Assembly (NCBI RefSeq): GCF_018336915.1
Contig: NZ_CP064921.1
Span: 1-32,000 of the forward strand
DNA from: Acaryochloris marina S15
Lineage (GTDB): Bacteria; Cyanobacteriota; Cyanobacteriia; Thermosynechococcales; Thermosynechococcaceae
DNA: 32,000 nt
Direction of reading: 5' to 3'
The first letter of the stretch is position 1. Every line of letters begins with the position of its first letter. Under the pieces are notes generated by a model, which saw only the letters and a program-made list of their open reading frames with translations, did not search any database and was not told where the DNA came from. A program made the position numbers and the translations under genes. Positions 3,924-28,661 of the stretch are shown here, in pieces.

Positions 3924-5138
3924 TTAGTGCGATCTCAAATCCGGTAGCTTAGGTCTCGATACCGCATCCGTCGAGAGATCTGGCATCTTGCGCCGATGCC
4001 GCCACATAATCCAGCCCGTCATGATCAAAATGCTGGGGGATAGGCCCATACATACATACAGAATACGGGTCGGTAGCCCCCCGAAGAATCCGTAATGGAT
4101 GGCGGGAAACGTATTGATGATGAAATCGCCTCGAGATCTCCCTGTATACAGCCCCCAAGTGCGAATGAGATCACCACTATATTTATCAAATTCCAGCACA
4201 CCACAATCATAGGTGTCATAACACTGCACCCAATCGATAATTCCAGTCGGCTCACTACCGATATAGGCATTCGAGAAACGACTGCCCGGTAAAGTGGCTT
4301 CAGCCATTTTCACCATCTTGGGTAAATGTTGGCCCAATAACCCGACCGTTATAACGTTAGGAATTGGACGAGAATAAACCGGTACATCAACCCCTTGATC
4401 CGTTGGTCCAGGTTGGCTAAAGGTCAGGGCATAGATAGCTGGCATGGTCCAAGAGCTGTAGTTCCAGCAAAACCCCGTAAAAGTTGCCATGGCCAAAAAG
4501 AGACTGGCAAGAATGCCCACTACTTTATGAACATCAAAGTTGCGCCGTTTAATATGCCCTTGCCACTTGATTTTGAAACCGGCGATCAGCTTGCGCCAGC
4601 CGGGCCATAGGATCGTGCCAGATAGGCAGAGGAGTGTCGTGAGCAGCCCCACAGCCCCCACAAAATAGAGTCCCCACTGCCCCGCAAAGAGACCTTCATG
4701 AAATGCCAGAAGTGACGCCCAAAAAGCGTCAATGTCATCCGTATTCGTTTCATTACCAATCACTTCCGCCGTATAAGGGTTGAGATAGAGGAGATGGAAC
4801 TGATCCGCCATGTCAGAATAGCCAAAATAAATGGGTTCATCTGCCTGGAAAAACCGATGTTCACTCTCAGCCAATTCGGTTATTTCATGGAATTGAGGGA
4901 CATTGGCTTGCGCATACGCTTCGGCCCGTTGATACAGTACCGGTAAGGGCAACCGTTCATCTTCTGGCTGAATTACAGGAAGTTGGCTTTTGATCTGAGT
5001 GTTAGAGAGTTCAGGAGAGAAGACCAATAGGCTCCCCGTTAACCCCACGACTGCAATAACCAGCCCAATCCCTAGACCAACGATCCGGTGAAAGGTGAAA
5101 ACCCAGGTTCTGATTTTTTTGGAACTGATTAATACCAT
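3924..5138 (-). CDS. PepSY-associated TM helix domain protein (siderophore-locus partner)
   Basis: 404 aa with an ATG start. The N-terminus KKIRTWVFTFHRIVGLGIGLVIAVVGLTGSLLVF is the characteristic PepSY_TM opening. There are several further TM helices, and it lies directly downstream of the TonB-dependent receptor remnant. Confidence 0.75.
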   Translation of the reverse strand: MVLISSKKIRTWVFTFHRIVGLGIGLVIAVVGLTGSLLVFSPELSNTQIKSQLPVIQPEDERLPLPVLYQRAEAYAQANVPQFHEITELAESEHRFFQADEPIYFGYSDMADQFHLLYLNPYTAEVIGNETNTDDIDAFWASLLAFHEGLFAGQWGLYFVGAVGLLTTLLCLSGTILWPGWRKLIAGFKIKWQGHIKRRNFDVHKVVGILASLFLAMATFTGFCWNYSSWTMPAIYALTFSQPGPTDQGVDVPVYSRPIPNVITVGLLGQHLPKMVKMAEATLPGSRFSNAYIGSEPTGIIDWVQCYDTYDCGVLEFDKYSGDLIRTWGLYTGRSRGDFIINTFPAIHYGFFGGLPTRILYVCMGLSPSILIMTGWIMWRHRRKMPDLSTDAVSRPKLPDLRSH

Positions 5139-5151
5139 TGATCTTTACTGC

Positions 5152-5978
5152 TTAAAACTGAACGGATACAGTACCCTGGACAGTAAATGGTGCCCCCACC
5201 AAGGTCAACCCCGCCACATTACCTTCGAAGTAACGCGTATTGAATAAGTTCTTGAAGTTCAACTGGACATTCCAATGTTTGCGGCGATAGAACAAGCTCG
5301 CATCAACCCGCAGATAGTCTGGCAATACAAAATCGTTCGGGATTGCGGCTTCGCGGTTGCCCACATAAAATAATCCCAGCCCACCCCCTAAGCCTTGAAA
5401 ACGACCTGACTGGTGTTCATAGGTGGTCCACAGACTGGCCCCCACTCCGGGAGCATTCTCCAACAGGTTCCCTTCAGGATTAAACTCATCTCCTCTGGTG
5501 ATGACAGAGTCATTGACGAAGGTCGAGGCAATAATATTCCAGCCCGGCAGCACCTCGCCCCCAATATCAAACTCCAGGCCACGACTTCTAACTTCACCAA
5601 TCGGAATGGAAAAATCGTCATCCAGCGGATCAACCCTAAGGACATTGGATTTGGTGATTTGGTAGGCCACCAGAGTAGCTGCTAGCTTGCCCCATTCAGC
5701 TTTGATGCCGACTTCAAACTGAGTACCGCGTTCCGGTTCAATCACTTCACCCTCCCGAGTTCGGGCATTATTGGGCGAAAAGGAACGATTGAAATTCGCA
5801 TACAGGGAAACGGGCTGAATGGGTTGATAGACAATGCCAATCCGAGGAGAGAAGGCTTGGTCATTAAAGTTGGCGGGAAAGTCCGCCCGCTCTCCTTCAA
5901 ACACTTCAAATCCTTCTTCGTCATAATTCAAAAAGTCATATCGTCCACCCACCAGGAGCTTGAGGGTAGGGGTTAATG
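5152..5978 (-). pseudogene. TonB-dependent (siderophore) receptor, C-terminal fragment only
   Basis: It shows beta-barrel C-terminal hallmarks (LRVDASLFYRRKHWNVQLNFKNLFNTRYFEG, terminal ...TVSVQF). The reading frame (…LTPTLKLLVGGRYDF…) runs without a start straight into the IS256 end at 5979. The plug and most of the barrel are missing. Confidence 0.85.
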
Positions 5979-7353
5979 GTTAGTGTCCCTATTTATTCGC
6001 CACGGTTTTTGAGGCGATCATGCTTGGCATGATCCCTACGAGAGACGAGAAAGAAAATCGCTAAACAGCTCTCCTCATTTGGGAAAGCACCAATTTCGTC
6101 AGCCTTGGTTCGGAATTTCCGGAACAGCCTTTCTAGCGCATTGGAAGTACGAATCAGCGAATGAAGGGATTCATCAAAATCATAGAAACTCAAGGTCAGG
6201 GCAAAATCTTTGATGAAGGTTCTAACAGCATCGGGTTCAAGGTCTGTCCATTTCTGTGCAAACACGAGCAACGTCACAATCGCTTCTTCCCAGTCTGGCG
6301 CTTTATAGATAGCATAGGCATCGTGTTTAATTTGTGAATATCGCAGCTTCTTTGCTTCAGAGTGGGAGAGTTCTTGTCCTTGAGCATCCAGGTGTGGCAA
6401 TTGCTCATAGCCCAAATGCCGGAGCATCGCTCGAACCTTGTGGGTAATGCATCGTTGATGTTGTGCGAGGGGAAACAGAGCGCGAATTACCTTAGGTAGT
6501 CCAGTGGTGCCATCACTGACAATCAGCTTCACCAAATGGGTTTGCAATCCTCGGTGCCGCAGGTGCTCAAAGAACAGTAGCCAGGCTGCCTCAGATTCTT
6601 GGACAGCCATTTCGTAATGAAGAACGGTTTGTGTCCCATCTGGCCATATCGCCATGGCCACTAAGATGACTCGGTCTTCCGCACGACGTAGCTTCCGGAT
6701 ATGTCCAGCTTGGTCTTCCCAAAAGTCTTCGGAGGCGCATTGAACACTCGCCCACACTCCATCAACAATCAGAATAAAAGGGGTTTTCTCAAGACGAGTT
6801 TGACGACTTTGGAGCATTTGCTTCTGAGCTTTGAGAGTAATCCGGTTAATGGCATTCACGGATAAAACTGCTCCCAGGATCTCATAGAGAGCTTCTTGCA
6901 AGTCTCGAAGCGATAAACCCATGACATACAAGCCCAGGCAAAACTCTAGAAGGCTACCGAGGGCTCGTTGGTAACGCTCTAGAATCTTCCACTCTCGGTC
7001 TGCATTCCCTTTCCGTAGTTTCGGGACAGATAGTTGAGCAATCCTGCCGTACTGGGTATCAAGAACCCGCTGATAATAGCCTGAACGTCGAGGGCGAGTC
7101 CCTTGAAGCTCTGATAGATAAGCTTGGACTTCTTCGTCTAGTGCTGACTCTACTGCTATCTGGGTAACTCGGTTAGCCTCAAGGCGCAGGGTTGCTTCTA
7201 AAGCTTTGTTAATAGAGGCATATGAACTTTGAGACTGGATACGGATAATCTGCTGCTCACGTTGGGAAATGTTCATCAAGGAGTGCTCCGAATTCTCTAT
7301 TATCAGAGCATTTCAGCTATTCCAGCTCATGGCGAATAAATCAAGACACTAAC
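5979..7353 (-). mobile_element. IS256-family insertion sequence (1375 bp)
   Basis: The terminal inverted repeats are GTTAGTGTCCCTATTTATTCGCCA (5979-6002) and TGGCGAATAAATCAAGACACTAAC (7330-7353), matching at 21/24 positions. They enclose a mutator-type transposase. The flanks GGGTTAATG and GAATATTTA differ, so there is no target duplication. Confidence 0.85.
5993..7276 (-). CDS. IS256-family (mutator-type) transposase
   Basis: Motifs: ILIVDGVWASV, LIVSDGTTGL, QRCITHKVRAMLRH and SNALERLFRKFRTKADEIGAFPNEESCL. The first ATG is at 7276; the track start at 7279 is TTG. Confidence 0.9.
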   Translation of the reverse strand: MNISQREQQIIRIQSQSSYASINKALEATLRLEANRVTQIAVESALDEEVQAYLSELQGTRPRRSGYYQRVLDTQYGRIAQLSVPKLRKGNADREWKILERYQRALGSLLEFCLGLYVMGLSLRDLQEALYEILGAVLSVNAINRITLKAQKQMLQSRQTRLEKTPFILIVDGVWASVQCASEDFWEDQAGHIRKLRRAEDRVILVAMAIWPDGTQTVLHYEMAVQESEAAWLLFFEHLRHRGLQTHLVKLIVSDGTTGLPKVIRALFPLAQHQRCITHKVRAMLRHLGYEQLPHLDAQGQELSHSEAKKLRYSQIKHDAYAIYKAPDWEEAIVTLLVFAQKWTDLEPDAVRTFIKDFALTLSFYDFDESLHSLIRTSNALERLFRKFRTKADEIGAFPNEESCLAIFFLVSRRDHAKHDRLKNRGE

Positions 7354-7664: not shown

Positions 7665-8156
7665 ATGACTAATACTTCACTGATCAATCTTGAGACGTTA
7701 ATTGATGATGCCAAGTGCTTCGAAATCCTGCGCCAACTTCGATGGCCACAAGGTATCGATTGCTATGATTGTCAATCCACAGAAATCGTCAAGCGAGGCT
7801 TTGATGAAGCTCAACCATTGCGTCAACGCTATCAGTGTAAGGCTTGTCACAAACGCTTCGACGACTTGAGTAATACGATTTTTGCAGGACATCATCAGCC
7901 TCTACAGACTTGGATTGTATGCTTGTACTTCCTGGGATTGAACCTGTCCAATCACCAAATTGCTCATGAACTTGACCTCAATAAAGATGATGTTCAGGAT
8001 ATGACATCTCAATTACGTTCTGGCATTGTTGCTACAAAGCCTGTCGTCACCTTGCAAGGGGAAGTTGAGTGTGATGAAGCCTATGTTATTGCTGGCCATA
8101 AAGGACGGCCAGAAGCGGTCAAAAAAAAGAGAGGAAGGGGCGCCGTCGTCGTCTGA
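7665..8156 (+). CDS. IS1595 transposase, N-terminal part (zinc ribbon plus first catalytic D)
   Basis: It carries the CxxC...CxxC ribbon (IDCYDCQS...YQCKACHKRF) and VECDEAYV. It ends 24 nt before the second ORF, which lies in the -1 frame. Confidence 0.8.
   Translation: MTNTSLINLETLIDDAKCFEILRQLRWPQGIDCYDCQSTEIVKRGFDEAQPLRQRYQCKACHKRFDDLSNTIFAGHHQPLQTWIVCLYFLGLNLSNHQIAHELDLNKDDVQDMTSQLRSGIVATKPVVTLQGEVECDEAYVIAGHKGRPEAVKKKRGRGAVVV
8123..8129 (+). promoter_or_regulatory. candidate -1 frameshift heptamer A_AAA_AAG within an A8 run
   Basis: The A run spans 8121-8128. In the orfA frame the codons are AAA AAA AAG. Shifting by -1 here gives ...KKERKGRRRRLKTKSGRGTLKKEKPPIFGMIQRQGEV..., joining both halves into one IS1595-type transposase. 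Confidence 0.4.
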
Positions 8157-8179
8157 AGACAAAATCCGGCAGAGGAACA

Positions 8180-8608
8180 TTGAAGAAAGAGAAACCTCCG
8201 ATCTTCGGCATGATCCAGCGTCAAGGAGAAGTTATTCTGAGGATGCTTCCCAATGTAAAGCAAGCCACCATTGCTCCGATAATCCAAGACTCTATCGTTG
8301 CTGGAACGTTGATTTACACTGATGAGTACAGCATTTATTCTCGTCTAACAAAGTGGGGATATGAACATAAAACCGTCTGTCACAGTGCGGGAGAATATGC
8401 TCGTGATGAGGATGGAGACGGATTCTTTGAAGTACATGTCAATACGATGGAAGGGTTCTGGTCCTTACTTCGATCTTGGCTGAGGCCGCACAGAGGTATT
8501 TCGCAAGAGAAGTTGCCGCTATATCTGGGTTTCTTTGAGTTCGTCCATAACACTCGGAAGCGAGGGAAGGGATTGCTTTCAGCTCTTTTAGAATGCCTCC
8601 TCAAGTAG
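8180..8608 (+). CDS. IS1595 transposase, C-terminal DDE part (frame -1 relative to orfA)
   Basis: Motifs: PPIFGMIQRQGEV, LIYTDEYSIY, HVNTMEGFWSLLRSWL. The track start is TTG, and the frame is already open from the A8 run. Confidence 0.8.
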   Translation: MKKEKPPIFGMIQRQGEVILRMLPNVKQATIAPIIQDSIVAGTLIYTDEYSIYSRLTKWGYEHKTVCHSAGEYARDEDGDGFFEVHVNTMEGFWSLLRSWLRPHRGISQEKLPLYLGFFEFVHNTRKRGKGLLSALLECLLK

Positions 8609-8631: not shown

Positions 8632-9498
8632 TTACCCCTTAATGTAAGACTTGTCTTTGAAAAGTATAACGATAGTTAAGAAAACTAATGTTCGAAATAT
8701 GTGTAAGAGAAATGTGACAGGCTCTGAAAATCTACTTGCAATAAAAATTGTAGGCGAATAAAATCCAGTTTTATTTATAAGGCCAATAACTGATGAAGAG
8801 TAAAGATAATTAGCTGAAGTACAACCAAATATAATTTCAGGGCAATTATATTTGGACAGAAGAAATAAGACAAGAAAAATCGCGAGATAGTTTGTTATAA
8901 ACAAGTATGGTGAATCTAGGGCCGACAAAGAGAATATTAAGCTAATAGAAGCAGATAAAAAGTATGGAGAAGGAATAATTAGACTGAAGGATTGCAGAAA
9001 GTACCCAATCCTGAATATACCAAAAATTCCAGATAGATAGGTAAACGGTAGTATGAAAAAGAGAGAACCTATCCAATCCCAAAATCTAATATCTGAATTT
9101 AGTTGGATGTTATCAGGAAATAAAATTACTATTACAAGAAGAGTTAAACATCTTATCAGGAAAAATATTGCGAAAACATAGAATGCTTTCTTCCAATCAG
9201 TCTTCCTTCCTGAAATAGCTAGAGATGATAGTCTTCTCTGGTGAATTTTTTCAGTAATTATATAGAGTAATCCAATAAATGATATTAGTATGCATGATAA
9301 AAATAAGTATTGTATTGTCCAAGGCTGCTGATTAAACCATTGCCTGAACTGACCTGTCTGTGCACCACTAAATGCTCCCCATAGCCCGAAAGCAATGGCA
9401 CATATAAAAAGCCAAAGGAAAAATGATAGAAATGCTAAAAAATATTGTTTCCAGCCATTCTTACCTAGATGTACTAAATCTAAATATGTAGATTTCAT
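8632..9498 (-). CDS. polytopic membrane protein (about 8 TM), orphan; possibly a degenerate CPBP/Abi-like fold
   Basis: 288 aa with an ATG start, very AT-rich and Phe/Ile/Leu/Ser-rich. By eye there are eight hydrophobic segments. LSGIFGIFRIGYFL, IFSLSAL and SANYLYS sit where the CPBP motifs EExxxR, FxxxH and HxxxN would lie, but they lack the catalytic residues. The stop codon abuts the IS1595 end at 8631. Confidence 0.6.
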   Translation of the reverse strand: MKSTYLDLVHLGKNGWKQYFLAFLSFFLWLFICAIAFGLWGAFSGAQTGQFRQWFNQQPWTIQYLFLSCILISFIGLLYIITEKIHQRRLSSLAISGRKTDWKKAFYVFAIFFLIRCLTLLVIVILFPDNIQLNSDIRFWDWIGSLFFILPFTYLSGIFGIFRIGYFLQSFSLIIPSPYFLSASISLIFSLSALDSPYLFITNYLAIFLVLFLLSKYNCPEIIFGCTSANYLYSSSVIGLINKTGFYSPTIFIASRFSEPVTFLLHIFRTLVFLTIVILFKDKSYIKG

Positions 9499-9850: not shown

Positions 9851-12800
9851 TTAAATTAGCCAATCTACTGATTCAAAGCTACGACGCTCAACATCTAACA
9901 AATTTGAGTCTGTATGGTGAAGTCGCCAATCCTGCAAGATGTAATAAATTCGCTCGTTGTAATTGACCCAGTCATCTGCATACGTATCTGTCAAAGACTC
10001 TGGACCCGGGCTATTTCCCCCGCCTAAGTCATGATATTTTATGAGATCGTCTTTGATTCGTTCATCCCCAATAGCAAAATAGTCAACTAAATAGTTAGTG
10101 TACTGAGCTACAGTTGGATCATGCTCTGGAACATTGAATGCCACACTGCTAGAGCGTCCAGGATACTCTACTTTGATTGCTTCATTTGCTCTATCAGTAC
10201 CTAAGTTTCCAGAAAAAAGATTAACGACATCACCATACCAGGGGATTTCTGTAAGGATGTCGTCAAGCGTTTCGTCTATGAGGAGCTGTTCATGCTGAAC
10301 CAAGTTGTAGTTCCCTACTAGCGTTAGTTCCTGCTTTCTCTGCAAATTAGTCTCAAATCGTGCTTCATACCAAGCTTCAAAGCCATCTGAAAATTTTTGT
10401 TGGTCTGGATCTAACTGTTCAAGAAATGTTTGTAGTTTTTCTGTATTAGGTGTGGCGTCACCTATAAATTCTTCGTAGAAAGCAGCCAATTTTGGAGCTA
10501 GTTCTTCAAATAATAAAAGGTTCCCCTCTGCTATTTTTGTTCGCTGTGGACCTGTTGCCCCATTTGTAATGACAAGAGGTACCCCTCCTTCATTACGAAT
10601 GACTTTACCGACGGCATCAGATGCCCAAACACCCCAATGTGCCCAATTAGCGCCTGAGTTCTCTCCTAGGAATTCGTCTAGCCGGACAGCAATCTCAGCG
10701 TAGGTTGCGGTGATCAGTTGGTTCCGGACACCTGTATTAGTCTCAGGGAGATGAGTAATTAAATCGACTGCTCCAGATAAATCAGATGTGTGTCTCAAAC
10801 CTGCAGCAGCAAGGGCTTGTAATCCCTCAGATGGTATCGAGTTCTCATCTGAGATGTTGGTGCCAGAGATATCCGCATCGCCACTCATGATAAAGGCATA
10901 TGCAGCGGCTGGATCATCTGCAAAGACTTGCCTGTCTAAAAGTGATTGATTTAAGTCAGCAAAGTTCAAGCTCCCATCTGGTAGATCATAGCGACCACTT
11001 GTCGTTTCGATTTGCTGGTAGAAATTGCGATCGTCTAGCAGATATTGAGCTGCATCCCTCAAATCTTCAGCATAAACGTAATAACCAGTGGAATACTTTG
11101 CACTGACAACAGCGTTTAGATCATCGGTCGAAATTGAACTATCAGGATTCTTGTGTTGTTTCGCAATATCGAGTTTATCAGCGTTGTTATAGATGGTTCG
11201 TAGATGCTGGTTTTGTGTCAAGAAAACATTGATTTCATCAATATCGAACTTAGAGTCTTCTCTGAGATCTCCAACAGCGCTGGCATCTCCATTGATTCTG
11301 AAGGCTTTCGCGAAGGAATCACTATCGTTTGCAACTTCCATGCGGGCAAACAGGATCGGATTATCAACGAGATACTGGGCAGCTTGCTGTAGCTCAGCAT
11401 CAAAACTTTCGTCTGGATCAGCAATGATTTCAAGATCGGCCATACCAATGACGCTATCGATGTCTCCCTTACCCGCTGCAACATCAAAGACATCAGCGTT
11501 ATTGCGAATCACGTCGAATGCTCGCATCGGAGTCATTGCCTGTTCATTTGACAAAGCGAGTGGAATAGGTTTTTCGCTTGTCGTTGGCGGTTGGGTTGAT
11601 GACGGTTGAGAGACTGGTGTTAGAGACTGAGGTTCTGGAGAGGAATCAGGCAGATGTGCCGTATCCTCTAGTATTGGTGTCAGAGATTGAGGCTCTGGAG
11701 AGGAGTTAGGCAGATGTGCTGTATCATCAGGAGCTGGAGACTGAGGCTGACCGCTGGCCGTCGTTAAATTTAACCGATAAGATGTGCTTTCAGAGCCAGC
11801 TTCGGTAATTCGTACATAGTACTCCCCGGCCTCTAGCGTTTCTTGAATACGGTTGTTGGTGACTGTGTCTGCAGATCCGATTGTTCTACCCTTGCTGTCA
11901 AGCAAAGCGAGTTTCAGATCACTCTTCACATCAGGACCGCCAACATAAAGTTCAACCTCTTCAGGTTGCTCTAGGTTGAACTTGTAGACATCTTGCCGAT
12001 CAAATTCATATCGCGATCTCTGATAGCCTAAGCTATCAGAAATATTGGAACCACCATTTTCAAGTGATATCTGCGTCGCCGTCGAAAGAGCATCATTGGG
12101 ACGGGTCGAATCTTCTGGATCTTCGAGATGATGCCAATCTAAGGCTGACCAAGATTGAGCATCAACAACGCTCTCAAATCCAAGGCCATGTCCGTGATGG
12201 AAACGGCTAACAGCATCCGCAGTCTCTTTTCCAAAGTCTCCATCGGCCCCTCCCAGCGGTAGCTCATAGCCTAGATCAAGTAGTCTTTCCTGTAGCTCCT
12301 GTACTTTTGTCCCACTATCGCCAATTTGTAGTGTGCCCCCGTCATCAGAACTTTCTGGTGCTGATGACGGGGGAGCAGCAGGAATAGAGGCAGAACTCGC
12401 TTCACCAGGCCCCTGAGCCTCAAAACTGAATGAGGCTGCCCACGTTTGAGGTCCAACAATTCCATTATTTTCTAGTTCTGGATAAAGTTCCTGAAACGCC
12501 TGGGCAACTCCACGGCTTTGAGGTCCGAACTCACCATCAACAGCAATATCCCAACCCAAGTTCTGCATTTTCTGCTGCCAAAGCTGCACATTTGGGTCGT
12601 AGCTCAGAGAGTCGCCAGACTCGTATTCAAGTCTGTAGCCTGGGTACTCAGAGGAGGGTAGTGGACCTGGGGCTGTGACTGGTGGTACATCGCTTCCTCC
12701 TGTAGGTAGTTCTGAACCAGCTTCCCAGCCATTATCTTGCCACTGCTGAATCCGTTGTTCAGAGGCTTCAAAGTGCCCTGGATCTTCAAAGTTTCCAAAT

Positions 12801-15800
12801 CTGGCCCCCCAGACATAACCTTTTTCATGAAAGTAGGGCGCGAGTTCAACGAGACCTCTATTGGTTAAACTATCTTCAGCGAAATCAAATGCTCCGCCAA
12901 AATTAAGGTCAATTGCTGTCCCCCAAGAGTGGTTAGAAATCGTTCCTGGTCTTTCATGGCCAGAGCTGTTTTTCTTAGGACGTATGTTTAACAAGCCACT
13001 GAGCTGTATTTGCTCATAGAGTGCGGGTTTTTCTGCTTTAACTTTGGCGAAAATCTCCTGCAAATCATCAAGCATTGGTCTGAGACCCGGCACCGTAAAA
13101 GGGCCTACATTTCGACTTTCAATTAGATTCTGATACTCAGGGGTAGCTCCGCCTATATTGGGGTTACCGATGGTAGCCAGCATAAAGTCTGTGTCTGGGG
13201 TTGATAATCCCGGACTGATAGTTGTTTTGTTCGGAATGGAGACTAATTCAAGATAATTTGGCTCACCGCCTGCAGGTGGAGTGATGGGAGTAGCTAGCGG
13301 TTCAGTATTTAGATCACTCGGTCCTCTCGCATCCAAAGCAAAGGACGCTGCCCACGTCTGAGGTCCAACAATTCCATCATTCTCTAGGTCCGAGTATAGC
13401 TCCTGGAAAACTTGGGCAATAGCTTGACTTTGAGGCCCGAACTCACCATCAACAGTAATGTCCCAACCCAAGTTCTGCATTTTCTGCTGCCAAAGCTGCA
13501 CATTTGGGTCGTAGCTCAGAGAGTCACCAGACTCGTACTCAAGGATGTAGCCTGGGTATTCAGACAAGGGCAATGCAGGTAGATTTGGCTGATCTGGTGG
13601 AGCGGCTTGATCACCCTCAAGACCTTGGATTTGGTTGAGAGCTGTTGTTTGTCCAGTACTACGCTGGCTTTCGTACAGCTCATTTAATTGCCCCGGAGAG
13701 CGATCATAAGTCAGTTGAAAATGAGGCTGGTCTACAAAATTATTGAAATCGCCTCCCCATTCAAGCCCCTCACTCTTACCGATTTCAGCAATTTGACTCC
13801 AATAATCACCGCCGTAGTTTGCCTGTCCATCTTTGATCTCAACGACATCAACCGCTAATCCATAGTTGTGATAACTTTCGCCTCCTTCTGCATTAGTGAC
13901 GATACCCCCAGCATTCCCGTTGCGGCCCTGTTGATAGAGCTGATCTTGCTCTTCAAATGTTCTGAATGCGTCTGTGACTCTTAGTTCTATTCCTAGCTCA
14001 GCATCCACCCGGTTTATGAACCGAATGACTTCATCCTGCATGGTGGGATGAAGAGTTGTAATTCTCTCTTGGGTCACATCATCCCAGATTGCACTAATCG
14101 AGTCGTAATTGTTGGTAGCATCTGGAACTGGAGCGGCACCTCCGCCATTGCTAGTTGTGTCATCAAACAGGTCAGCACTAGGTAAAAAGTCCCTAACCCG
14201 ATTGGCCGCTTCTCTGGGGGTGATGGCACCATCTTTGTTAATGTCTAAACCTGCGTTGCCGTTGTAGGGTGAATCCCCCTTAGTTATGATTGGCCGATCG
14301 GGATCTTGACCTACTGCTGCAGGCCATAGCACTGCCATGTAGGTATCCTCTAGCGTGTTGAGCTGACTGCTCATCGCGAAATGCTTCTCGACGTAATCTA
14401 ACTGCTCAATAGCAGACATCTGTGCTAATTCAGCAGTGGTTGTCCCCAAACCTTGGGCAGTCTCTGGCATGAACTGAATGAGTCCAGTTGCGCCACTACC
14501 GTAAGCGTTAGGAATGCTGGGGCTATAAGTCTCGGCTGTTTCAAATCCCATGACGGCCATTAGATACTCGGGAACAGCATTCAAACGACCAGAGATTTCT
14601 ACAACTTTGTCTAGAAAAGCTTGATTAACGTCAGGGATATAGGTCCCATACTCAATGTCACTCGTCACAGTTGGCTCTGATGCAGTTGGAGACTGATCTG
14701 TCGGCTCGTCCTCCTCCACTGTGCCAGGAATGTAGATTACCTCACCAGCAAGCAGACTATTCGCTTCTGTTTCTGAGAATGTTGTACCATCTTCTCTTTG
14801 AAATTCTATCCAGCGGTGACCATCTCCAAATTCTCGCTGAGCAATATCCCAAAAAGTGTCGCCACTTACTAAGGTGTATGGATTAAATTCATCAGATTGC
14901 GCAGGTGGAGATGTTAGCTCAATAACTGTTTCGACTGGAGAGTCTGCAGCGGTTAGTTGTTCTCCGGGAATGTAGAGAATTTGACCAATTTGCAGGCTCT
15001 TAGCCTCTGCTTCTGTAAATTTTGTGCCATCTTCATTCTCAAGCTCGGTCCAGCGGGCTCCATCTCCAAGCTGACGCTCTGCAATCGCCCACAATGTATC
15101 ACCGGTTTGAAGTTCATAGGATGTACGACTATCACTTTGCTCAACGGAGAGTGAAGTGTGTATTGGTTGGGTCTGACCTTCAACTCTTAAAATCAACGTT
15201 GAATGATCGTCTTCATATTTGAGTCTCAGTAGGTCAGCATCAGCAATTTCTTTCCCTCGAGCCAGCCTTGAAAAAATTGCCCCTTCATCACCCGCAGAGT
15301 CAATTGCATTGAGCTTTTGGTCAAAATAATGGCCTGCTTCTTCAAGCAGAACAGCATCTAACGCTTCTGTATTATCTGAACTTTGAGCAAGTAGCTGATC
15401 CGAGACAAAAATAGTGTTGTCGCCAAAGGCACCCTCACCCTTTAGATCTGCTGCTGCTACAACTTTAATCTCCGGTCCCCCGTCTCCTGAAACAAAATCA
15501 CTAACTAGCTCTTTTGCTTCAGAGACCTCAATATCATCTCCAAACGCCGTCTCAAATGTCTTAAGGAAATCTGGATTCTCGCTCAAGTTCACTAGATTCT
15601 CTTGCAGTCTCAACTCCGCTGCTTCTAGTACAGTGGCTTCCTGACTTGTTGACGAGTCATCGACATACCCCAAACTGCTGTTAATGCCTCCAACCCACGA
15701 GTCAAGACCTTCTGACACCGACCCTAATTGCTTCTTGACGCTTGCTAGCAATTGACTGTTGCCAATATCAGTGGCTAGCTCACCCAGACCGTCAACGAAC

Positions 15801-16306
15801 GCTCTAGCCTGATGATTGAGTTCATTATGAATACCATTGCTCGGATCGTTCCAGCTCCCTGCCGTCGTAGCAACCCAGTTGCGTATAGTTTCACCAATAC
15901 CTTCAGCGGTATCCTTGGCCAAGAGCCTGCTCGACCCTGCGGCTTGTTCGATAAATACAGAACTATGCGTAATTAGCCCTGCGCTTGTTCTGACTGCAGT
16001 ATCAACGATTGGAATGTCTGTAAGAACCCTATCCATCCAAGAGTTGACGGACTCTGGCTCATTGAGAACGGGTTGCATAGGCGAGCTAAGACTATTCTCA
16101 AACTGACCTTTTCCCTGATCTTGCAGTCCGGTATCCCAATTCATGCTTGATAAATCGGGAAGATCGGGCATTGCCTGCGGTCCCTGGCCAAGATCTGTAA
16201 ATAGGTTCTGGCTAGGCCCAAACGAATTACGAGGGGATAAAGGATCTAAGCCAGCGTGGGTTAAAGTACTCTCTGAGACACCATTGGTATCAACATCAAA
16301 ACTCAT
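9851..16306 (-). CDS. giant multidomain peptidoglycan-hydrolase protein (2151 aa from the ATG; the track ORF adds 2 codons from a TTG)
   Basis: It is a single uninterrupted ORF. A GAGGA RBS (16313-16317) lies 6 nt upstream of the ATG at 16306. The domain order, read from motifs, is listed in the sub-features below. There is no N-terminal signal peptide (MSFDVDTNGVSESTLTHAGLDPLSPRNSF...). Confidence 0.9.
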   Translation of the reverse strand: MSFDVDTNGVSESTLTHAGLDPLSPRNSFGPSQNLFTDLGQGPQAMPDLPDLSSMNWDTGLQDQGKGQFENSLSSPMQPVLNEPESVNSWMDRVLTDIPIVDTAVRTSAGLITHSSVFIEQAAGSSRLLAKDTAEGIGETIRNWVATTAGSWNDPSNGIHNELNHQARAFVDGLGELATDIGNSQLLASVKKQLGSVSEGLDSWVGGINSSLGYVDDSSTSQEATVLEAAELRLQENLVNLSENPDFLKTFETAFGDDIEVSEAKELVSDFVSGDGGPEIKVVAAADLKGEGAFGDNTIFVSDQLLAQSSDNTEALDAVLLEEAGHYFDQKLNAIDSAGDEGAIFSRLARGKEIADADLLRLKYEDDHSTLILRVEGQTQPIHTSLSVEQSDSRTSYELQTGDTLWAIAERQLGDGARWTELENEDGTKFTEAEAKSLQIGQILYIPGEQLTAADSPVETVIELTSPPAQSDEFNPYTLVSGDTFWDIAQREFGDGHRWIEFQREDGTTFSETEANSLLAGEVIYIPGTVEEDEPTDQSPTASEPTVTSDIEYGTYIPDVNQAFLDKVVEISGRLNAVPEYLMAVMGFETAETYSPSIPNAYGSGATGLIQFMPETAQGLGTTTAELAQMSAIEQLDYVEKHFAMSSQLNTLEDTYMAVLWPAAVGQDPDRPIITKGDSPYNGNAGLDINKDGAITPREAANRVRDFLPSADLFDDTTSNGGGAAPVPDATNNYDSISAIWDDVTQERITTLHPTMQDEVIRFINRVDAELGIELRVTDAFRTFEEQDQLYQQGRNGNAGGIVTNAEGGESYHNYGLAVDVVEIKDGQANYGGDYWSQIAEIGKSEGLEWGGDFNNFVDQPHFQLTYDRSPGQLNELYESQRSTGQTTALNQIQGLEGDQAAPPDQPNLPALPLSEYPGYILEYESGDSLSYDPNVQLWQQKMQNLGWDITVDGEFGPQSQAIAQVFQELYSDLENDGIVGPQTWAASFALDARGPSDLNTEPLATPITPPAGGEPNYLELVSIPNKTTISPGLSTPDTDFMLATIGNPNIGGATPEYQNLIESRNVGPFTVPGLRPMLDDLQEIFAKVKAEKPALYEQIQLSGLLNIRPKKNSSGHERPGTISNHSWGTAIDLNFGGAFDFAEDSLTNRGLVELAPYFHEKGYVWGARFGNFEDPGHFEASEQRIQQWQDNGWEAGSELPTGGSDVPPVTAPGPLPSSEYPGYRLEYESGDSLSYDPNVQLWQQKMQNLGWDIAVDGEFGPQSRGVAQAFQELYPELENNGIVGPQTWAASFSFEAQGPGEASSASIPAAPPSSAPESSDDGGTLQIGDSGTKVQELQERLLDLGYELPLGGADGDFGKETADAVSRFHHGHGLGFESVVDAQSWSALDWHHLEDPEDSTRPNDALSTATQISLENGGSNISDSLGYQRSRYEFDRQDVYKFNLEQPEEVELYVGGPDVKSDLKLALLDSKGRTIGSADTVTNNRIQETLEAGEYYVRITEAGSESTSYRLNLTTASGQPQSPAPDDTAHLPNSSPEPQSLTPILEDTAHLPDSSPEPQSLTPVSQPSSTQPPTTSEKPIPLALSNEQAMTPMRAFDVIRNNADVFDVAAGKGDIDSVIGMADLEIIADPDESFDAELQQAAQYLVDNPILFARMEVANDSDSFAKAFRINGDASAVGDLREDSKFDIDEINVFLTQNQHLRTIYNNADKLDIAKQHKNPDSSISTDDLNAVVSAKYSTGYYVYAEDLRDAAQYLLDDRNFYQQIETTSGRYDLPDGSLNFADLNQSLLDRQVFADDPAAAYAFIMSGDADISGTNISDENSIPSEGLQALAAAGLRHTSDLSGAVDLITHLPETNTGVRNQLITATYAEIAVRLDEFLGENSGANWAHWGVWASDAVGKVIRNEGGVPLVITNGATGPQRTKIAEGNLLLFEELAPKLAAFYEEFIGDATPNTEKLQTFLEQLDPDQQKFSDGFEAWYEARFETNLQRKQELTLVGNYNLVQHEQLLIDETLDDILTEIPWYGDVVNLFSGNLGTDRANEAIKVEYPGRSSSVAFNVPEHDPTVAQYTNYLVDYFAIGDERIKDDLIKYHDLGGGNSPGPESLTDTYADDWVNYNERIYYILQDWRLHHTDSNLLDVERRSFESVDWLI
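9854..11572 (-). other. C-terminal ~570 aa of the giant ORF, unassigned (internal ~105-aa duplication plus ~320-aa terminal domain)
   Basis: NNADVFDVA (aa 1604) and NNADKLDIA (aa 1709) recur, as do AAQYLVDN (aa 1644) and AAQYLLDD (aa 1754). The terminal part contains NQLITATYAEIAVRLDEFLGENSGANWAHWGVWASDAVGKVIR. I cannot name a family for it. Confidence 0.5.
11606..11725 (-). repeat. 2 x 60-bp tandem repeat encoding DTAHLP(N/D)SSPEPQSLTP(ILE/VSQ)
   Basis: Two adjacent 20-aa units (aa 1530-1549 and 1550-1569), visible in the DNA as two near-identical 60-nt units. Confidence 0.85.
11762..12103 (-). other. PPC (pre-peptidase C-terminal)-like beta-sandwich (aa ~1404-1517)
   Basis: DRQDVYKFNLEQPEEVELYVGGPDVKSDLKLALLDSKGRTIGSAD...LEAGEYYVRITEAGSESTSYRLNL follows the D-x-Y-x-F ... 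DLDL ... AG-YY-V ... Y-L pattern. Confidence 0.6.
12140..12334 (-). other. PG_binding_1 module 3 (aa ~1327-1391)
   Basis: LQIGDSGTKVQELQERLLDLGYELPLGGADGDFGKETADAVSRFHHGHGL. Confidence 0.7.
12425..12658 (-). repeat. PG_binding_1 module 2, near-duplicate of module 1
   Basis: By my manual alignment, 66 of 78 aa are identical to module 1. A 65-nt stretch is identical at the DNA level (12549-12613 vs 13461-13525). Confidence 0.85.
12758..13135 (-). other. LAS/M15 zinc peptidase domain 2 (VanY / D,D-carboxypeptidase-like, aa ~1060-1185)
   Basis: SNHSWGTAIDLNF (His-x6-Asp) and FEDPGHFEAS (the third His). The sequence is clearly different from domain 1. Confidence 0.7.
13337..13567 (-). other. PG_binding_1 module 1 (aa ~916-992)
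   Basis: NVQLWQQKMQNLGWDITVDGEFGPQSQAIAQVFQEL...DGIVGPQTWAA. Confidence 0.8.
13709..14080 (-). other. LAS/M15 zinc peptidase domain 1 (CwlK / L-Ala-D-Glu peptidase-like, aa ~745-868)
   Basis: LRVTDAFRTFEEQDQLYQQGR, then SYHNYGLAVDV (His-x6-Asp) and FVDQPHFQL (the third ligand His). The H/D/H set is intact. Confidence 0.75.
14183..14647 (-). other. SLT-type lytic transglycosylase domain (aa ~556-710)
   Basis: LMAVMGFETAETYS carries the candidate catalytic Glu, followed by SGATGLIQFMPETAQGLG, the signature shared with phage/SLT transglycosylases. Confidence 0.7.
14726..14881 (-). other. LysM module 2 of the giant ORF (aa ~478-529)
   Basis: YTLVSGDTFWDIAQREFGDGHRWIEFQREDGTTFSETEANSLLAGEVIYIPG. 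Confidence 0.8.
14966..15121 (-). other. LysM module 1 of the giant ORF (aa ~398-449)
   Basis: YELQTGDTLWAIAERQLGDGARWTELENEDGTKFTEAEAKSLQIGQILYIPG. Confidence 0.8.
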
Positions 16307-16390
16307 AATCAATCCTCACTAGAGTACTGGATTCTTTAACTGACTTAACCATCTGCTTTGAGGCACGGCTATCAAAGCTCAATCCAAGAA

Positions 16391-16420
16391 ATTATCAGGG
16401 GTGGTTAGCCAAGTTGATAA
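16391..16420 (-). promoter_or_regulatory. candidate sigma70-type promoter for the giant ORF
   Basis: The minus strand reads TTATCA, a 17-18 nt spacer, then (T)GATAAT, about 85-115 nt upstream of the ATG. This rests on a pattern match only. Confidence 0.25.
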
Positions 16421-16866
16421 GAATCGCTATATTTTCAGCTAGAGCAAGACTAGAAAAACAGATGACTTGCAAAATACTGTAACAGTGCCAACAGCAAACC
16501 CTAGTCGTTTTGGAAGCTGTATTTTAGTCATTATTTTCTCCATGTATAAGCGATGGGAATGCAGTGTAATTCAAGGGGATCAAGACTGTTCAATGAGTTA
16601 TAGACCAGAAACAATCTTGTGCCGATTGCAAAAGCCAAATAAATGCTTGAATCCAATAAAAAAGTATTGATTGATACAAAAAATCATTGATATTCTGACT
16701 TGGCTTATCTATTCAGCCAAATTCCGTTATTTGCTTTTAGCCTCATGGAATTGAACTTACAAAAAAAGGTTCGGCATTTCAATCGAATATTATGGAAGTA
16801 AATAGATAATTTAGTAGAATTTTTGTGAATAGAAGTAGAAATAAATGGAACAAAGTAGAACTTTAC

Positions 16867-17163
16867 CACCTGTAAATGATTCCGAGTTTTCTTACTCTGC
16901 AATGATTTGAGGAACCATAGCTGTTGCCATTGACCATTTAGTTCTACGGTTCTCAGTACAGCTAAGGTGTGACTTTCTCGTTTAGACCAGCTCATCCCCT
17001 TCTTCTTCTGGCAAAACTTGCTAGTAAGACATTGTCGTAGTCATCAATGAGTACAATTTTGGCTTTGACAAAAAGAGATTATTTCCAATCTGAGTGGAGT
17101 AAAGTCACTGTAAAATCTCTAAAACTCAGGCAGGGAAAGTTAACCCGGAATCATTTACAGGTG
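16867..17163. repeat. foldback / MITE-like element (297 bp) with 18-bp perfect termini
   Basis: CACCTGTAAATGATTCCG (16867-16884) pairs with CGGAATCATTTACAGGTG (17146-17163). Weaker similarity continues inward: both arms encode ...SWSK...KSL..K.TRNHLQV in opposite orientation. Confidence 0.7.
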
Positions 17164-17372
17164 AGCTTTGATTGAGGTCCCCGACTACAAATATGCAAGT
17201 GGGGCAAGACAAATGTCTCAAACTTCTCAAGAATTAAGAATCTTGGAATCCATCTATGGGTCTGAGTTTGAAGCATTTGCACTTCTAAAGAACAACAAAC
17301 TAAAAGGCCGGAGTCATTTTAGTTTGTGCAAGTGGAATGCTATGTAGAGAAAGGATTTTAGACAAATTCACT

Positions 17373-17398
17373 CATGGAATAAAAACCCAAATGAGTTG
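17373..17398 (+). repeat. copy B of the CATGG(G/A)ATAAA..CCC(G/A)AAATGAGTTG repeat
   Basis: CATGGAATAAAAACCCAAATGAGTTG compared with copy C CATGGGATAAAGCCCGAAATGAGTTG. The differences are one 1-nt indel and 2-3 substitutions, depending on where the gap is placed. Confidence 0.6.
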
Positions 17399-18068
17399 TT
17401 AGAGAAAAAATTGCAAGTATGAAAGGCTATTTTGAGCTAAGTAGCTAGCCTCAAAAAGTAGAGTTATCTTACTTTTCTATAAGTCAATCAAAATAGCCCT
17501 TATGCATTAGACTTACAATACATCTCAAGCAGAATCTATAAATAGTTTATATCCAGTTAATTTAGTAAATATCCATCAAGATATTTTAGTTTACTTACTC
17601 AACTTAAATATTTATTCTGGTTTTGATATGCTACAGTTACCTCAGCAAGTGCCATCACATCTAAACCAATATCTAAATTTTCAAGATGGCAGTTAGAATT
17701 CCATATACGGTGTTATTTTTCTGTTAGTGACTGAGTTGTCTTGAACATACTAATTTATTTGACTTTGTTTTTAAAATAAAGAAGTATTGTTAGTTACCAA
17801 CTTCATCTTGATGCTCCGTAAGTGAATAAGTCTCTTTCACTTGATTGGGATATGTATAGAGTGCGTTGTAGCTTGAGTTGTTGGTGCTTGTTGATACCTA
17901 GTCCTTCAATCACTGTATTTTACCGTTTTGCTCGAAAGCTCGGTAATAAGTTCTCTGTATTTGTTTAATTCTCAATGACTTCAGTTGAATAAGTTATAGG
18001 AGGTGAGTTTTAGTACTTTTAACCTCAAGAATTACATACCTATCTATAGGCAGTATCAAGGTGCAGAC

Positions 18069-18386
18069 ATGAAAAAATCAACAATCTCTAAATGTAGAAG
18101 ACAATTCTCGCTGACTTTCAGCGGACTACTTTTTTTTACCGCAACAGCTAGTATATTTGTAACCCCTGAAGCAGCATCAGCTCACACGAAGTACCGTACG
18201 GTGTGTGCAGGTTACTCAGCAAAAGGTCCGTATGGGTGTAGTAGAGTCAAGACTCCACACAAGCACCAACCACCAAAACCACCAAGACGACCAACAACAA
18301 CAAAACCAACAACAAAACCAACAACAAAAACACCTATTGGTTGCCTCAATACTGGGTTCGACCACTTAGGCCGCAGGTGTCGCTAG
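18069..18386 (+). CDS. small secreted basic protein with 4 Cys and a PTTK-repeat linker (orphan)
   Basis: The ATG at 18069 gives MKKSTISKCRRQFSLTFSGLLFFTATASIFVTPEAASA|HTKY, a signal-peptide-like opening with an AxA site. The mature part (~67 aa) has 4 Cys and the stretch PPKPPRRPTTTKPTTKPTTKTP. The track start at 18003 is a GTG overlapping an AGGAGG, which is unlikely to be used. Confidence 0.6.
   Translation: MKKSTISKCRRQFSLTFSGLLFFTATASIFVTPEAASAHTKYRTVCAGYSAKGPYGCSRVKTPHKHQPPKPPRRPTTTKPTTKPTTKTPIGCLNTGFDHLGRRCR
18291..18329 (+). repeat. CCAACAACA(ACA)AAA tandem repeat (PTT(T)K x3) inside the small ORF
   Basis: One 15-nt unit followed by two perfect 12-nt units. Confidence 0.85.
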
Positions 18387-23645: not shown

Positions 23646-23676
23646 CTTTGTTGACGCTTATTAGGCATCAACAAAG
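23646..23676 (-). terminator. candidate intrinsic terminator of the SDR gene
   Basis: A 9-bp stem (CTTTGTTGA / TCAACAAAG) with a 13-nt loop overlaps the stop codon. On the minus strand it is followed by CTTACTCTTTTGG. Confidence 0.35.
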
Positions 23677-24269
23677 AGAACTTCTCCAGTAATAAACCCA
23701 TCAACAGAGCGTTCAAAGGCTTTGCCAACCAATTTCCCAGGAACAGGTTGAAAACCTGGCATTATCTCACCGTATACATCCCAAGCCTCTACCAGAACCG
23801 TGGGATTGACGACATTGATACGGATTCCTCTAGGCATCTCATAGGCGACACACTTCACAAAAGTGTCTATTGCACCGCTAGTCGTTGCATCTGCAATTGC
23901 AAATGGAATCGGTTTAGTATTCAAAATGCCGCTAATAAGCGTAAATGATCCAGCGTCCGCAATATACTCTTGTCCGATTCGGACTAAGTTAATTTGTCCC
24001 ATCATCTTACTCATCACAGTAGTCATCCACTGCTGTTCTGTCATGTCTACGAACATCTCATATTCACAGAATCCAACAGTATTCACAACAGCATCAAAGC
24101 CGCTGACTGCTTGGTATAGTGCCCTGATGGATTCTTCACTTGTGATGTCAACTTTGTAGTCACAACCTTCGCCAGAGCGGGAGGCTGTGATAACACGATG
24201 CTTACCTAAGCCCGTTAGTGCAGCCTGTCCCATTTTGCCATTGGCACCAATCAGAATTACCGTTTTCAT
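23661..24269 (-). CDS. short-chain dehydrogenase/reductase (atypical, short)
   Basis: MKTVILIGANGKMGQAAL is a Rossmann-type GxxGxxG-like start. The protein is 202 aa. Confidence 0.75.
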   Translation of the reverse strand: MKTVILIGANGKMGQAALTGLGKHRVITASRSGEGCDYKVDITSEESIRALYQAVSGFDAVVNTVGFCEYEMFVDMTEQQWMTTVMSKMMGQINLVRIGQEYIADAGSFTLISGILNTKPIPFAIADATTSGAIDTFVKCVAYEMPRGIRINVVNPTVLVEAWDVYGEIMPGFQPVPGKLVGKAFERSVDGFITGEVLFVDA

Positions 24270-24447
24270 TGTTTTAGTTTCCTTTAGATTTTGTTTCGGT
24301 TGTGAGATCAGCTCTTAACTAGAGTACATCAAGACTGACCTATATGTATGTAGATAATATAGCCAAAAAATATACTGCTCAACTTAATCGTGAATGGAAA
24401 CATCAAGACTCATTGAACAGCTAGATGATAGGCTTGAGGTTATTTTT

Positions 24448-24465
24448 CTACCTATATATAGGTAG
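24448..24465. promoter_or_regulatory. perfect 18-bp palindrome CTACCTATATATAGGTAG (possible operator)
   Basis: It is perfectly self-complementary. It lies 179 nt upstream of the SDR start and 41 nt from the IS4 end. Confidence 0.3.
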
Positions 24466-24505
24466 TCTACAATGAGTTGCTAAACGATGCAAGGGGTAAT
24501 GGGGG

Positions 24506-28433: not shown

Positions 28434-28439
28434 GGGCTT

Positions 28440-28473
28440 GAGCGGCTTGATGGGAAACTGTCACGAGCCGTTC
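28440..28473 (+). ncRNA. group II intron domain V (34 nt)
   Basis: GAGCGGCTTGATGGGAAACTGTCACGAGCCGTTC folds as a 10-bp lower stem with the AGC triad, a 2-nt 3' bulge (CA), a 4-bp upper stem and a GAAA tetraloop. A domain VI-like hairpin with an unpaired A (28509) follows. Confidence 0.85.
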
Positions 28474-28661
28474 TTAGGGGAGGGGGACACGGCGACGTGT
28501 GCCCTCTTACCCGACTAGCTGCGATATGGGGCAATTTAGTATAAATGCACTATAGTGATGAACCAATTTTGGTCGTTACAGCATTTATAAGGTGATTAAA
28601 CTCTCAATAAGAAAAATATAATGAGAGTAGCCAAAACCACTGCTATTCATGGCTTACAGGT

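Follow-up and report, generated by a model that had tools for sequence, protein, structure and literature searches.

A 2151-residue protein of Acaryochloris marina S15 is, in our reading and with moderate confidence, a modular antibacterial effector that is exported and follows the polymorphic-toxin plan. Its gene lies in the 32,000-nucleotide stretch analysed here (the window; positions 1 to 32,000 of contig NZ_CP064921.1). The protein shares its N-terminus with relatives that break off sharply into unrelated payloads, and its C-terminal cassette recurs behind other trafficking domains. What is new is an uncatalogued, cyanobacteria-specific leader, an unusually rich wall-degrading midsection and an uncatalogued end domain; the architecture itself is the known polymorphic-toxin one. 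Export, bond specificities, target, C-terminal toxicity and an immunity role for a neighbouring 288-residue open reading frame (ORF) are what we infer, every functional step drawing on homology and context. The gene is organised as follows.

9851..16306, minus strand: whole ORF, 2151 residues plus stop.
15662..16306, minus strand: N-terminal extension (residues 1-215), Acaryochloris-type family, common to P0002-P0005 and L005-L011.
15152..15661, minus strand: EExGH module (residues 216-385), constant leader with a recombination breakpoint at the module end.
14963..15118, minus strand: first LysM (residues 397-448), Pfam match above cut-off.
14723..14878, minus strand: second LysM (residues 477-528), Pfam match above cut-off; 140-nt duplication at 70%.
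14177..14632, minus strand: lytic transglycosylase domain (residues 559-710), PDB 9udh_A at E 2e-41; catalytic Glu in GFETAE, residues 587-592.
13706..14098, minus strand: M15 peptidase a, PF13539/VanY (residues 737-867), Pfam match; motifs SYHNYGLAVD and DQPHF.
13334..13513, minus strand: first PG_binding_1 (residues 932-991), Pfam match above cut-off.
12758..13258, minus strand: M15 peptidase b, PF13539 (residues 1017-1183), Pfam match; motifs SNHSWGTAID and DPGHFE.
12422..12601, minus strand: second PG_binding_1 (residues 1236-1295), Pfam match; recent duplicate of the first (262 nt at 83%).
12134..12331, minus strand: third PG_binding_1 (residues 1326-1391), Pfam match above cut-off.
11759..12010, minus strand: PPC beta-sandwich (residues 1433-1516), Pfam match above cut-off.
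11606..11737, minus strand: proline/serine-rich linker (residues 1524-1567), containing a 60-nt tandem repeat in two copies.
10925..11536, minus strand: four EF-hand-like repeats of NolX/HrpK1 type, D.DG.I...DL ... AAQYLLDNP (residues 1591-1794).
9854..10924, minus strand: all-alpha core, putative toxin domain (residues 1795-2151), with no Pfam, NCBIfam or PDB match.

The reading frame is uninterrupted from its ATG at 16306 to a stop at 9851-9853, and GAGGA lies 6 nt upstream of the ATG, in agreement with a first-pass annotation that had described a single ORF with a good ribosome-binding site. The product matches A. marina WP_212661577.1 / QUY40351.1 with 100% identity, an entry whose only name at NCBI is "peptidoglycan-binding protein". 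We saw no sign of an assembly error fusing separate genes: GC content is even along the ORF (47% for the gene), the last 908 residues and the downstream ORF are present together in three independent short-read assemblies, and the order N-terminus, LysM, transglycosylase, M15, PG_binding_1 recurs in P0002 and P0003, which come from other organisms. The C-terminal cassette and the downstream ORF are lower in GC, and the setting is rich in insertion sequences (ISs). The gene is carried on a 144,267-bp contig for which we found no known plasmid, either by megablast of 8.4 kb against PLSDB or by tblastn of the C-terminal domain against plasmids. Looking up the giant protein by exact sequence among contigs also returned no record.

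By sequence comparison, we assign the N-terminal ~385 residues as the part that stays constant in a polymorphic-toxin-like family of cyanobacteria, because high identity between heads ends abruptly and unrelated payloads follow. A constant head with a variable payload is the defining pattern of polymorphic toxins (PMC3482391). Residues 1-373 are 37-85% identical to L005-L011 and P0002-P0005. Against L005, from an Acaryochloris metagenome-assembled genome (MAG), identity is about 85%, at 31-39 matches per block of 40 residues up to about residue 372, and falls to background beyond, where L005 runs on as a different 869-residue protein. L008 and L010 are likewise 89% identical over residues 1-382 and then unrelated. 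The head of L008, also from an Acaryochloris MAG, carries PG_binding_1, PT-HINT and EndoU; that of P0005/L001 carries PT-HINT and EndoU, followed by small immunity-like ORFs including DUF2247; that of P0004 carries Ntox5; and those of L009 and L011 carry LysM plus unknown ends. P0002 and P0003 keep the LysM-transglycosylase-M15-PG_binding_1 array but have a different end domain. At residues ~1430-1774 of P0002 and ~1085-1426 of P0003 we found a shared beta-rich domain of ~340 residues without a Pfam match, a candidate for another toxin tip.

The first-pass annotation had left the ~395-residue N-terminal region without assignment. No Pfam match at E<=1, DUF4157 included, was found for residues 1-393, nor any NCBIfam match for the head, and literature searches with its motif (GDEGAIF and variants) returned no paper; the region is nevertheless no orphan, since it belongs to a sizeable family. 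When one genome of each species was scanned, 489 coding stretches proved related to the EExGH module, nearly all of them cyanobacterial. The proteins range from 450 to more than 3500 residues in length, and the motif lies 120-240 residues after their start. The preceding residues 1-215 comprise ~85 disordered residues and then long helices, in a low-confidence model. Within that disordered stretch, a GPQAM motif at residues 42-46 (16168-16182) is conserved in the Acaryochloris-type family and could be a secretion or processing signal. The invariant positions of the module itself read EE.GH..D...N..D(S).GDEG.IF ... E.D, and in the giant protein the motif is EEAGHYFD, with EExGH in place of HExxH. 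AlphaFold2 modelled residues 220-370 with a predicted local distance difference test score (pLDDT) >90, as three beta-strands and, after them, a helix in which EEAGH lies. By Foldseek against the PDB, the best matches were aspzincins (1ge6, probability 0.90, E 0.05; AsaP1), Spartan and selecase, a weak but consistent signal. On this model the module looks like a zincin whose first metal-binding His is replaced by Glu.

Known polymorphic toxins offer a close parallel. The PVC-metallopeptidase (DUF4157) leader is a three-strand, three-helix zincin that forms the constant N-terminus of variable toxins (Zhang et al. 2012, PMC3482391); these toxins occasionally bear second leader copies near the C-terminus, many of their loci lack an immunity gene, and Ntox5 had been listed only with this leader (PMC3482391). 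The A. marina head is likewise a constant, zincin-like module of strands and a motif helix whose payloads are exchanged by recombination. Extra EExGH copies occur near the C-termini of P0006 and P0011, the relative P0004 carries Ntox5, and many loci with an EExGH head have no immunity gene. The two differ in motif (EExGH..D / GDEGxIF against HExxHxxQ-E, with Pfam DUF4157 unmatched) and in distribution, the EExGH module being essentially cyanobacteria-specific and often found on repeats-in-toxin (RTX) proteins with HlyD neighbours, not near contractile-tail genes. We regard the relationship as a functional analogy, with distant homology possible, and not as membership.

The company kept by the head bears on how the protein might leave the cell. 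RTX repeats are present in 13 of 43 surveyed EExGH-module proteins, and the other domains in that set include DUF4114, FG-GAP, VWD, cadherin, Calx-beta, LapA, CHAP, polysaccharide deacetylase and serralysin (M10). HlyD is the most frequent family among the 135 immediate neighbour ORFs of head-module genes, at only 6 occurrences (ABC_tran has 3), and no tail or sheath family appears among the top 25 neighbour families. The giant protein itself has a fitting composition: it is free of cysteine and acidic (352 D+E against 125 K+R). Neither a Sec-type signal peptide nor a transmembrane segment was found in it, the maximum 19-residue hydropathy being 1.1. Its acidity, its lack of cysteine and of a signal peptide and the RTX and HlyD associations of the head point weakly to type I-like export.

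Most EExGH heads sit on adhesin-like giants (RTX, cadherin, FG-GAP, VWD, Calx-beta, LapA), which raises the alternative of a surface-retained exoprotein or adhesin. The head, LysM and PG_binding_1 modules would then anchor the protein in the producer's envelope, the hydrolases would make room for it, and the NolX/HrpK-like C-terminus would contact a host or substrate; Acaryochloris lives on ascidians and algae. We consider this unlikely, though worth keeping in view. Bona fide nuclease toxins with PT-HINT occur behind the same head (37-89% identity), and adhesin repeats are absent from the giant protein.

The head also argues against a housekeeping or developmental autolysin that would serve the producer's own wall in growth, septation or turnover. 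Such a role would suit the NCBI name, and LysM, PG_binding_1, lytic transglycosylase and M15 domains are all known from autolysins. Yet the protein has no signal peptide, its head is common to nuclease toxins with swapped payloads, its gene lies in an IS-rich region on a 144-kb replicon or contig, and a full-length orthologue is absent from other genomes, the best match covering 46% of the protein. We therefore regard an autolysin as highly improbable. The first-pass annotation had also thought the protein unlike housekeeping enzymes and closer to bacteriolysins or polymorphic toxins, a judgement upheld by the breakpoints and by the head held in common with EndoU and Ntox5 proteins; the three-gene system that it added fares worse, as described below. 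Of the two roles it had offered, wall attack and wall remodelling, remodelling is the less likely.

In the midsection, Pfam recovered above cut-off all the binding and peptidase modules that had been read from the sequence at first pass (two LysM, two M15, three PG_binding_1 and PPC), and the hydrolase families emerged from the domain searches as anticipated. The PG_binding_1 and LysM modules include internal duplications. The two-copy linker repeat, at 11615-11734, was missed by Tandem Repeats Finder and was recovered by a second repeat search. For the transglycosylase, named earlier as SLT-type, the Pfam SLT score was below threshold (17.6 bits against a gathering score of 21.3), but the domain aligns over 149 residues with the solved "lytic transglycosidase" 9udh_A, the Glu of GFETAE falling on the E of AFETGE. 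By sequence and this aligned catalytic Glu, we assign it as a predicted lytic transglycosylase (SLT/GH23-like). It also resembles the transglycosylase part of the phage internal protein 9k2v_E and is ~55% identical to phage "putative lytic transglycosylases".

The two M15 domains had been called unrelated; since both match PF13539 (52.1 and 42.9 bits against a cut-off of 25) and are 27% identical over the catalytic core, they are better described, on sequence, as diverged members of one family. In both, the LAS metal ligands (H-x6-D ... H) are intact, so that, with the aligned Glu of the transglycosylase, the earlier statement that catalytic and metal-binding residues are whole holds. Domain a is similar to Ply500 (E 6e-19) and LysB4 (E 4e-18), domain b only weakly to Ply500 (E 6e-3). 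For both, the predicted activity is most likely of the L-Ala-D-Glu endopeptidase type. With Ply500, LysB4, CwlK and TagX the protein shares the PF13539 LAS core, its H..D...H ligands whole, and the pairing of that core with PG_binding_1. It differs from them in uniting, within 2151 residues, two cores of this kind with one transglycosylase and five binding modules. Unlike in multi-domain phage endolysins, the hydrolases stand between a toxin-type head and the tail of a non-phage protein.

The nearest annotated relatives of domain b are M15 genes inside type VI secretion system (T6SS) clusters, in a TagX-like position. On Paracoccus methylovorus plasmid p1 (L089, 25903-26847), for example, a related metallopeptidase lies within a T6SS cluster (ImcF-related, VgrG, TagF, TssM) and adjoins a two-partner-secretion haemagglutinin pair. 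TagX, a PF13539 L-Ala-D-Glu endopeptidase, makes way through the wall for a secretion machine (PMC5061870), which shows that domains of this kind are put to use in local wall breaching; the same parallel keeps open the idea of hydrolases acting on the producer's own wall and, because TagX-position genes open that wall, lends something to the adhesin alternative. Three different intact murein hydrolases nevertheless far exceed what a space-maker would need.

Phage similarity extends to the midsection and stops there. A component derived from a phage or a contractile injection system, either a virion-associated lysin or extracellular contractile injection system (eCIS) cargo, would account for the phage-like transglycosylase, for the resemblance of domain a to phage endolysins and for the analogy between the head and the PVC-metallopeptidase leader that eCIS toxins carry. 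We searched 50,697 phage records by tblastn and obtained single-domain matches only, covering 15% of the protein or less, and scans of IMG/VR with profiles of both end domains returned no relatives. The Pfam scan, which covers most ORFs of at least 90 residues in the window, likewise found no phage or tail genes; tail and sheath families are absent among the top neighbours of head-module genes, and DUF4157 is unmatched. We rejected a phage origin on these searches and give the wider explanation very little weight. The same results speak against homologues that are always embedded in prophage lysis or tail modules, an arrangement that, according to the first-pass annotation, would have made the protein a phage component.

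The C-terminal 565 residues, described at first pass as ~570 residues of unknown identity, do have a core without Pfam or PDB match, but they belong to a large family. Standalone homologues are 45-60% identical (P0013-P0017) or 26-34% identical (P0018-P0024), and a profile search of 1.84 billion representative proteins, clustered at 50% identity, returned 1780 clusters at E<=1e-3 and 991 at E<=1e-10; a metagenome scan with the same profile yielded no more than two loci, on contigs that are nearly identical. Some proteins, of 350-450 residues and without a Pfam family, consist of the core alone. Its conserved motifs are HLPET..G.RN.LIT..Y, GANW..WAS, AEGN, HEQ and HHTD, and its many invariant polar residues (PET, RN, Y, D, NW, S, GN, HEQ, R, H) are of a kind typical of an active site, judging by the alignment. 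AlphaFold2 modelled the domain confidently (pLDDT 82.7; predicted template modelling score 0.86). Foldseek against the PDB and BFVD gave nothing better than E 0.6, a profile search of PDB sequences gave no match, and none was found in NCBIfam. A coiled-coil unit, "ALGTS..VT.ALQ.EL" (repeated), and a "SDR(R/K)(L/F)Y.Q...FDAA..AQ" segment are shared by P0002, P0004, P0013 and P0014; they link proteins with the cyanobacterial head to standalone C-terminal-domain proteins and suggest a common pool of linker cassettes.

The repeats ahead of the core share their EF-hand-like unit with the type III secretion system (T3SS) translocators HrpF, NopX (NolX), PopF and HrpK1. Pfam NolX was matched in 11 of 13 close family members and, among 59 wider members, in 12, with T3SS_HrpK1 in 9. 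The likeness is confined to the repeats, and the all-alpha core lies outside those models. In the giant protein, NolX scored 14.5 bits against a cut-off of 26.1, over profile positions 199-294 only; with no hydrophobic segments in the protein and no T3SS genes in the window, we rejected membership of the translocators. A resemblance to plant-interaction translocators is what the adhesin alternative would draw on here, together with the lack of immunity genes beside close C-terminal homologues.

Elsewhere, the C-terminal domain recurs behind WxG/WXG100, RTX and VWA N-termini. On high-GC contigs (70-75% GC), proteins with the domain begin with WxG-like segments, and a ~170-residue lipoprotein lies at or over the stop codon of the domain's gene in 4 of 4 high-GC loci with readable flanks, as listed here.

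L091:10583-11098, lipoprotein after a WxG-type homologue.
L092:5475-5984, lipoprotein after a WxG-type homologue.
L093:7664-8185, lipoprotein after a WxG-type homologue.
L095 ~6725-7235, lipoprotein after a WxG-type homologue (locus L094/L095).

These lipoproteins have a lipobox and two conserved Cys, and those of L091 and L092 are homologous at E 8e-7; no NCBIfam match was found, and the family is uncatalogued. Toxins of the LXG/WXG class exported by the type VII secretion system (T7SS), such as TelC, act outside the membrane and are met by lipoprotein or surface immunity proteins such as TipC. By analogy with TelC and TipC, the exported lipoprotein looks like an immunity protein for a toxin that would act outside the cytoplasmic membrane, and the end domain is probably envelope-acting. 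The high-GC homologues resemble that system in their WxG-type N-termini, in the conserved lipoprotein and in a domain that appears to act in the envelope. They differ from it in that the domain matches neither TelC nor any other PDB entry in fold or sequence, and the A. marina protein has another head, no T7SS context and no such lipoprotein. TelC is mentioned in PMC12419801. Immunity-like lipoproteins beside the high-GC homologues speak further against an adhesin.

The same domain separates the effector from a pure secreted bacteriolysin, in which the three hydrolases would be the whole weapon, for killing or nutrient release, and the C-terminal 565 residues a Ca-dependent folding, targeting or secretion domain. 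Intact hydrolase motifs, EF-hand-like repeats, a C-terminal position suited to a type I secretion signal region and standalone close homologues without immunity genes are all compatible with it. Against it, the core is rich in invariant polar residues of a kind typical of an active site, also stands alone, and occupies the toxin position of WxG-type proteins next to conserved lipoproteins. We hold a pure bacteriolysin to be improbable.

Returning to the modular effector, we propose the following course. The head (residues 1-385) would serve export, payload release or both, by analogy with the PVC-metallopeptidase leader, with type I secretion possible, and recombination between relatives would swap the payload after about residue 385. 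The two LysM and three PG_binding_1 modules would hold the protein on murein, where the transglycosylase would cut glycan strands and the two PF13539 LAS peptidases would cut stem peptides. Together the three hydrolases might open the sacculus of a neighbouring bacterium, and the C-terminal 565 residues, with their Ca-binding-like repeats and all-alpha core, would act in the exposed envelope as a toxic tip. More tentatively, we speculate that the EExGH leader defines a hitherto unnamed, cyanobacteria-specific class made up of giant exoproteins and exported polymorphic toxins. In these proteins the leader would act in export or in self-release, and would probably be coupled to type I secretion. 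The A. marina member could then be a self-sufficient wall-drilling toxin. Its cargo, the PET-RN...HEQ all-alpha fold, would be a new enzyme domain aimed at the envelope and brought there through a competitor's murein; Actinobacteria might deliver the same domain by type VII secretion and neutralise it with the dedicated lipoprotein.

Several observations weigh against the effector. In the Pfam-scanned window we found no secretion-system genes, ABC and HlyD included, as the first-pass annotation had noted for phage structural and secretion genes alike, and the giant protein contains no RTX repeats (no HemolysinCabind match). The EExGH module resembles zincins only weakly (Foldseek E 0.05) and has a Glu where the first metal-binding His would be; it could be inactive or no peptidase at all. 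The murein-binding and murein-cutting modules could act on the producer's own wall. At the C-terminus, the core has no fold match and its toxic activity is putative; the closest homologues (45-60% identity; L004, L088, L090), which are lower in GC, have no immunity-like neighbour, and the lipoprotein family is absent from the window. The 288-residue ORF is without relatives elsewhere and may be no gene. The function assigned to the family as a whole is itself a prediction.

Little is known about how cyanobacteria fight their neighbours, or about how very large proteins without a signal peptide are exported. Here, hundreds of cyanobacterial exoproteins begin with a leader for which Pfam and NCBIfam have no model, and in a toxin family this leader shows where recombination occurs; if the proposal is right, it would aid genome searches for effectors secreted by cyanobacteria. 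The union of three murein hydrolases in a single chain is rare and offers a possible model for a toxin crossing a Gram-negative-type wall without an injection machine. The end-domain family is large (at 50% identity, ~1000 clusters or more), its fold is modelled with confidence yet without a match, and it has a conserved lipoprotein partner; if confirmed, it would add a new envelope-targeting toxin-immunity pair.

Downstream of the giant gene lies the membrane-protein ORF.

8632..9498, minus strand: 288-residue polytopic membrane ORF, ~7-8 hydrophobic segments, 32% GC, 352 nt downstream of the giant gene.

By position only, this ORF is a candidate immunity gene. It has no family match in Pfam or NCBIfam, and in 90-odd fetched loci its only relatives were in near-identical assemblies beside the same giant gene. 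As a conserved partner we rejected it, since no relative adjoins any homologue. The first-pass annotation had joined the giant gene, this membrane protein and a small secreted peptide into one system and looked to homologues for a conserved neighbourhood. Nothing that we found backs such a system, and the ORF's GC content (32% against 47%) also sets it apart from the giant gene. The peptide is probably the small basic protein at 18003-18386 on the plus strand, which has a signal-peptide-like segment, four Cys and TTKP repeats and no family match in Pfam or NCBIfam. It lies 1.7 kb from the giant gene across an AT-rich, ORF-poor stretch, and we found no link between them, which leaves its part in a system unsupported. 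That stretch, 16307-18000, ~1.7 kb upstream of the giant gene at 35% GC, holds neither a convincing ORF nor an Rfam match.

The wider setting is IS-rich, with a Mutator-family transposase, a split IS1595 transposase, two DDE transposases, a group II intron and a cut-down TonB-dependent receptor. At 7665-8608 on the plus strand, the IS1595-family transposase comes in two pieces, one ORF with the zinc ribbon and one with the DDE domain, and is probably frameshifted. Assembly L086, which otherwise matches, lacks this copy, which suggests that the insertion is recent. On the minus strand at 3924-7279, the TonB-dependent receptor is cut to its last 266 residues (5152-5952), abuts the Mutator-family transposase (5993-7279) and adjoins a PepSY_TM protein (3924-5138), probably an IS-disrupted iron-uptake locus. 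The group II intron, at 26559-28515 on the plus strand, contains an ORF with RVT_N, RVT_1, GIIM and a weak HNH, directly followed by an Rfam Intron_gpII match (28438-28515, 50.9 bits). Lastly, at 23661-25780 on the minus strand, a short-chain dehydrogenase ORF that covers Pfam profile positions 42-175 of 236 adjoins a DDE transposase and is probably another IS-truncated gene.

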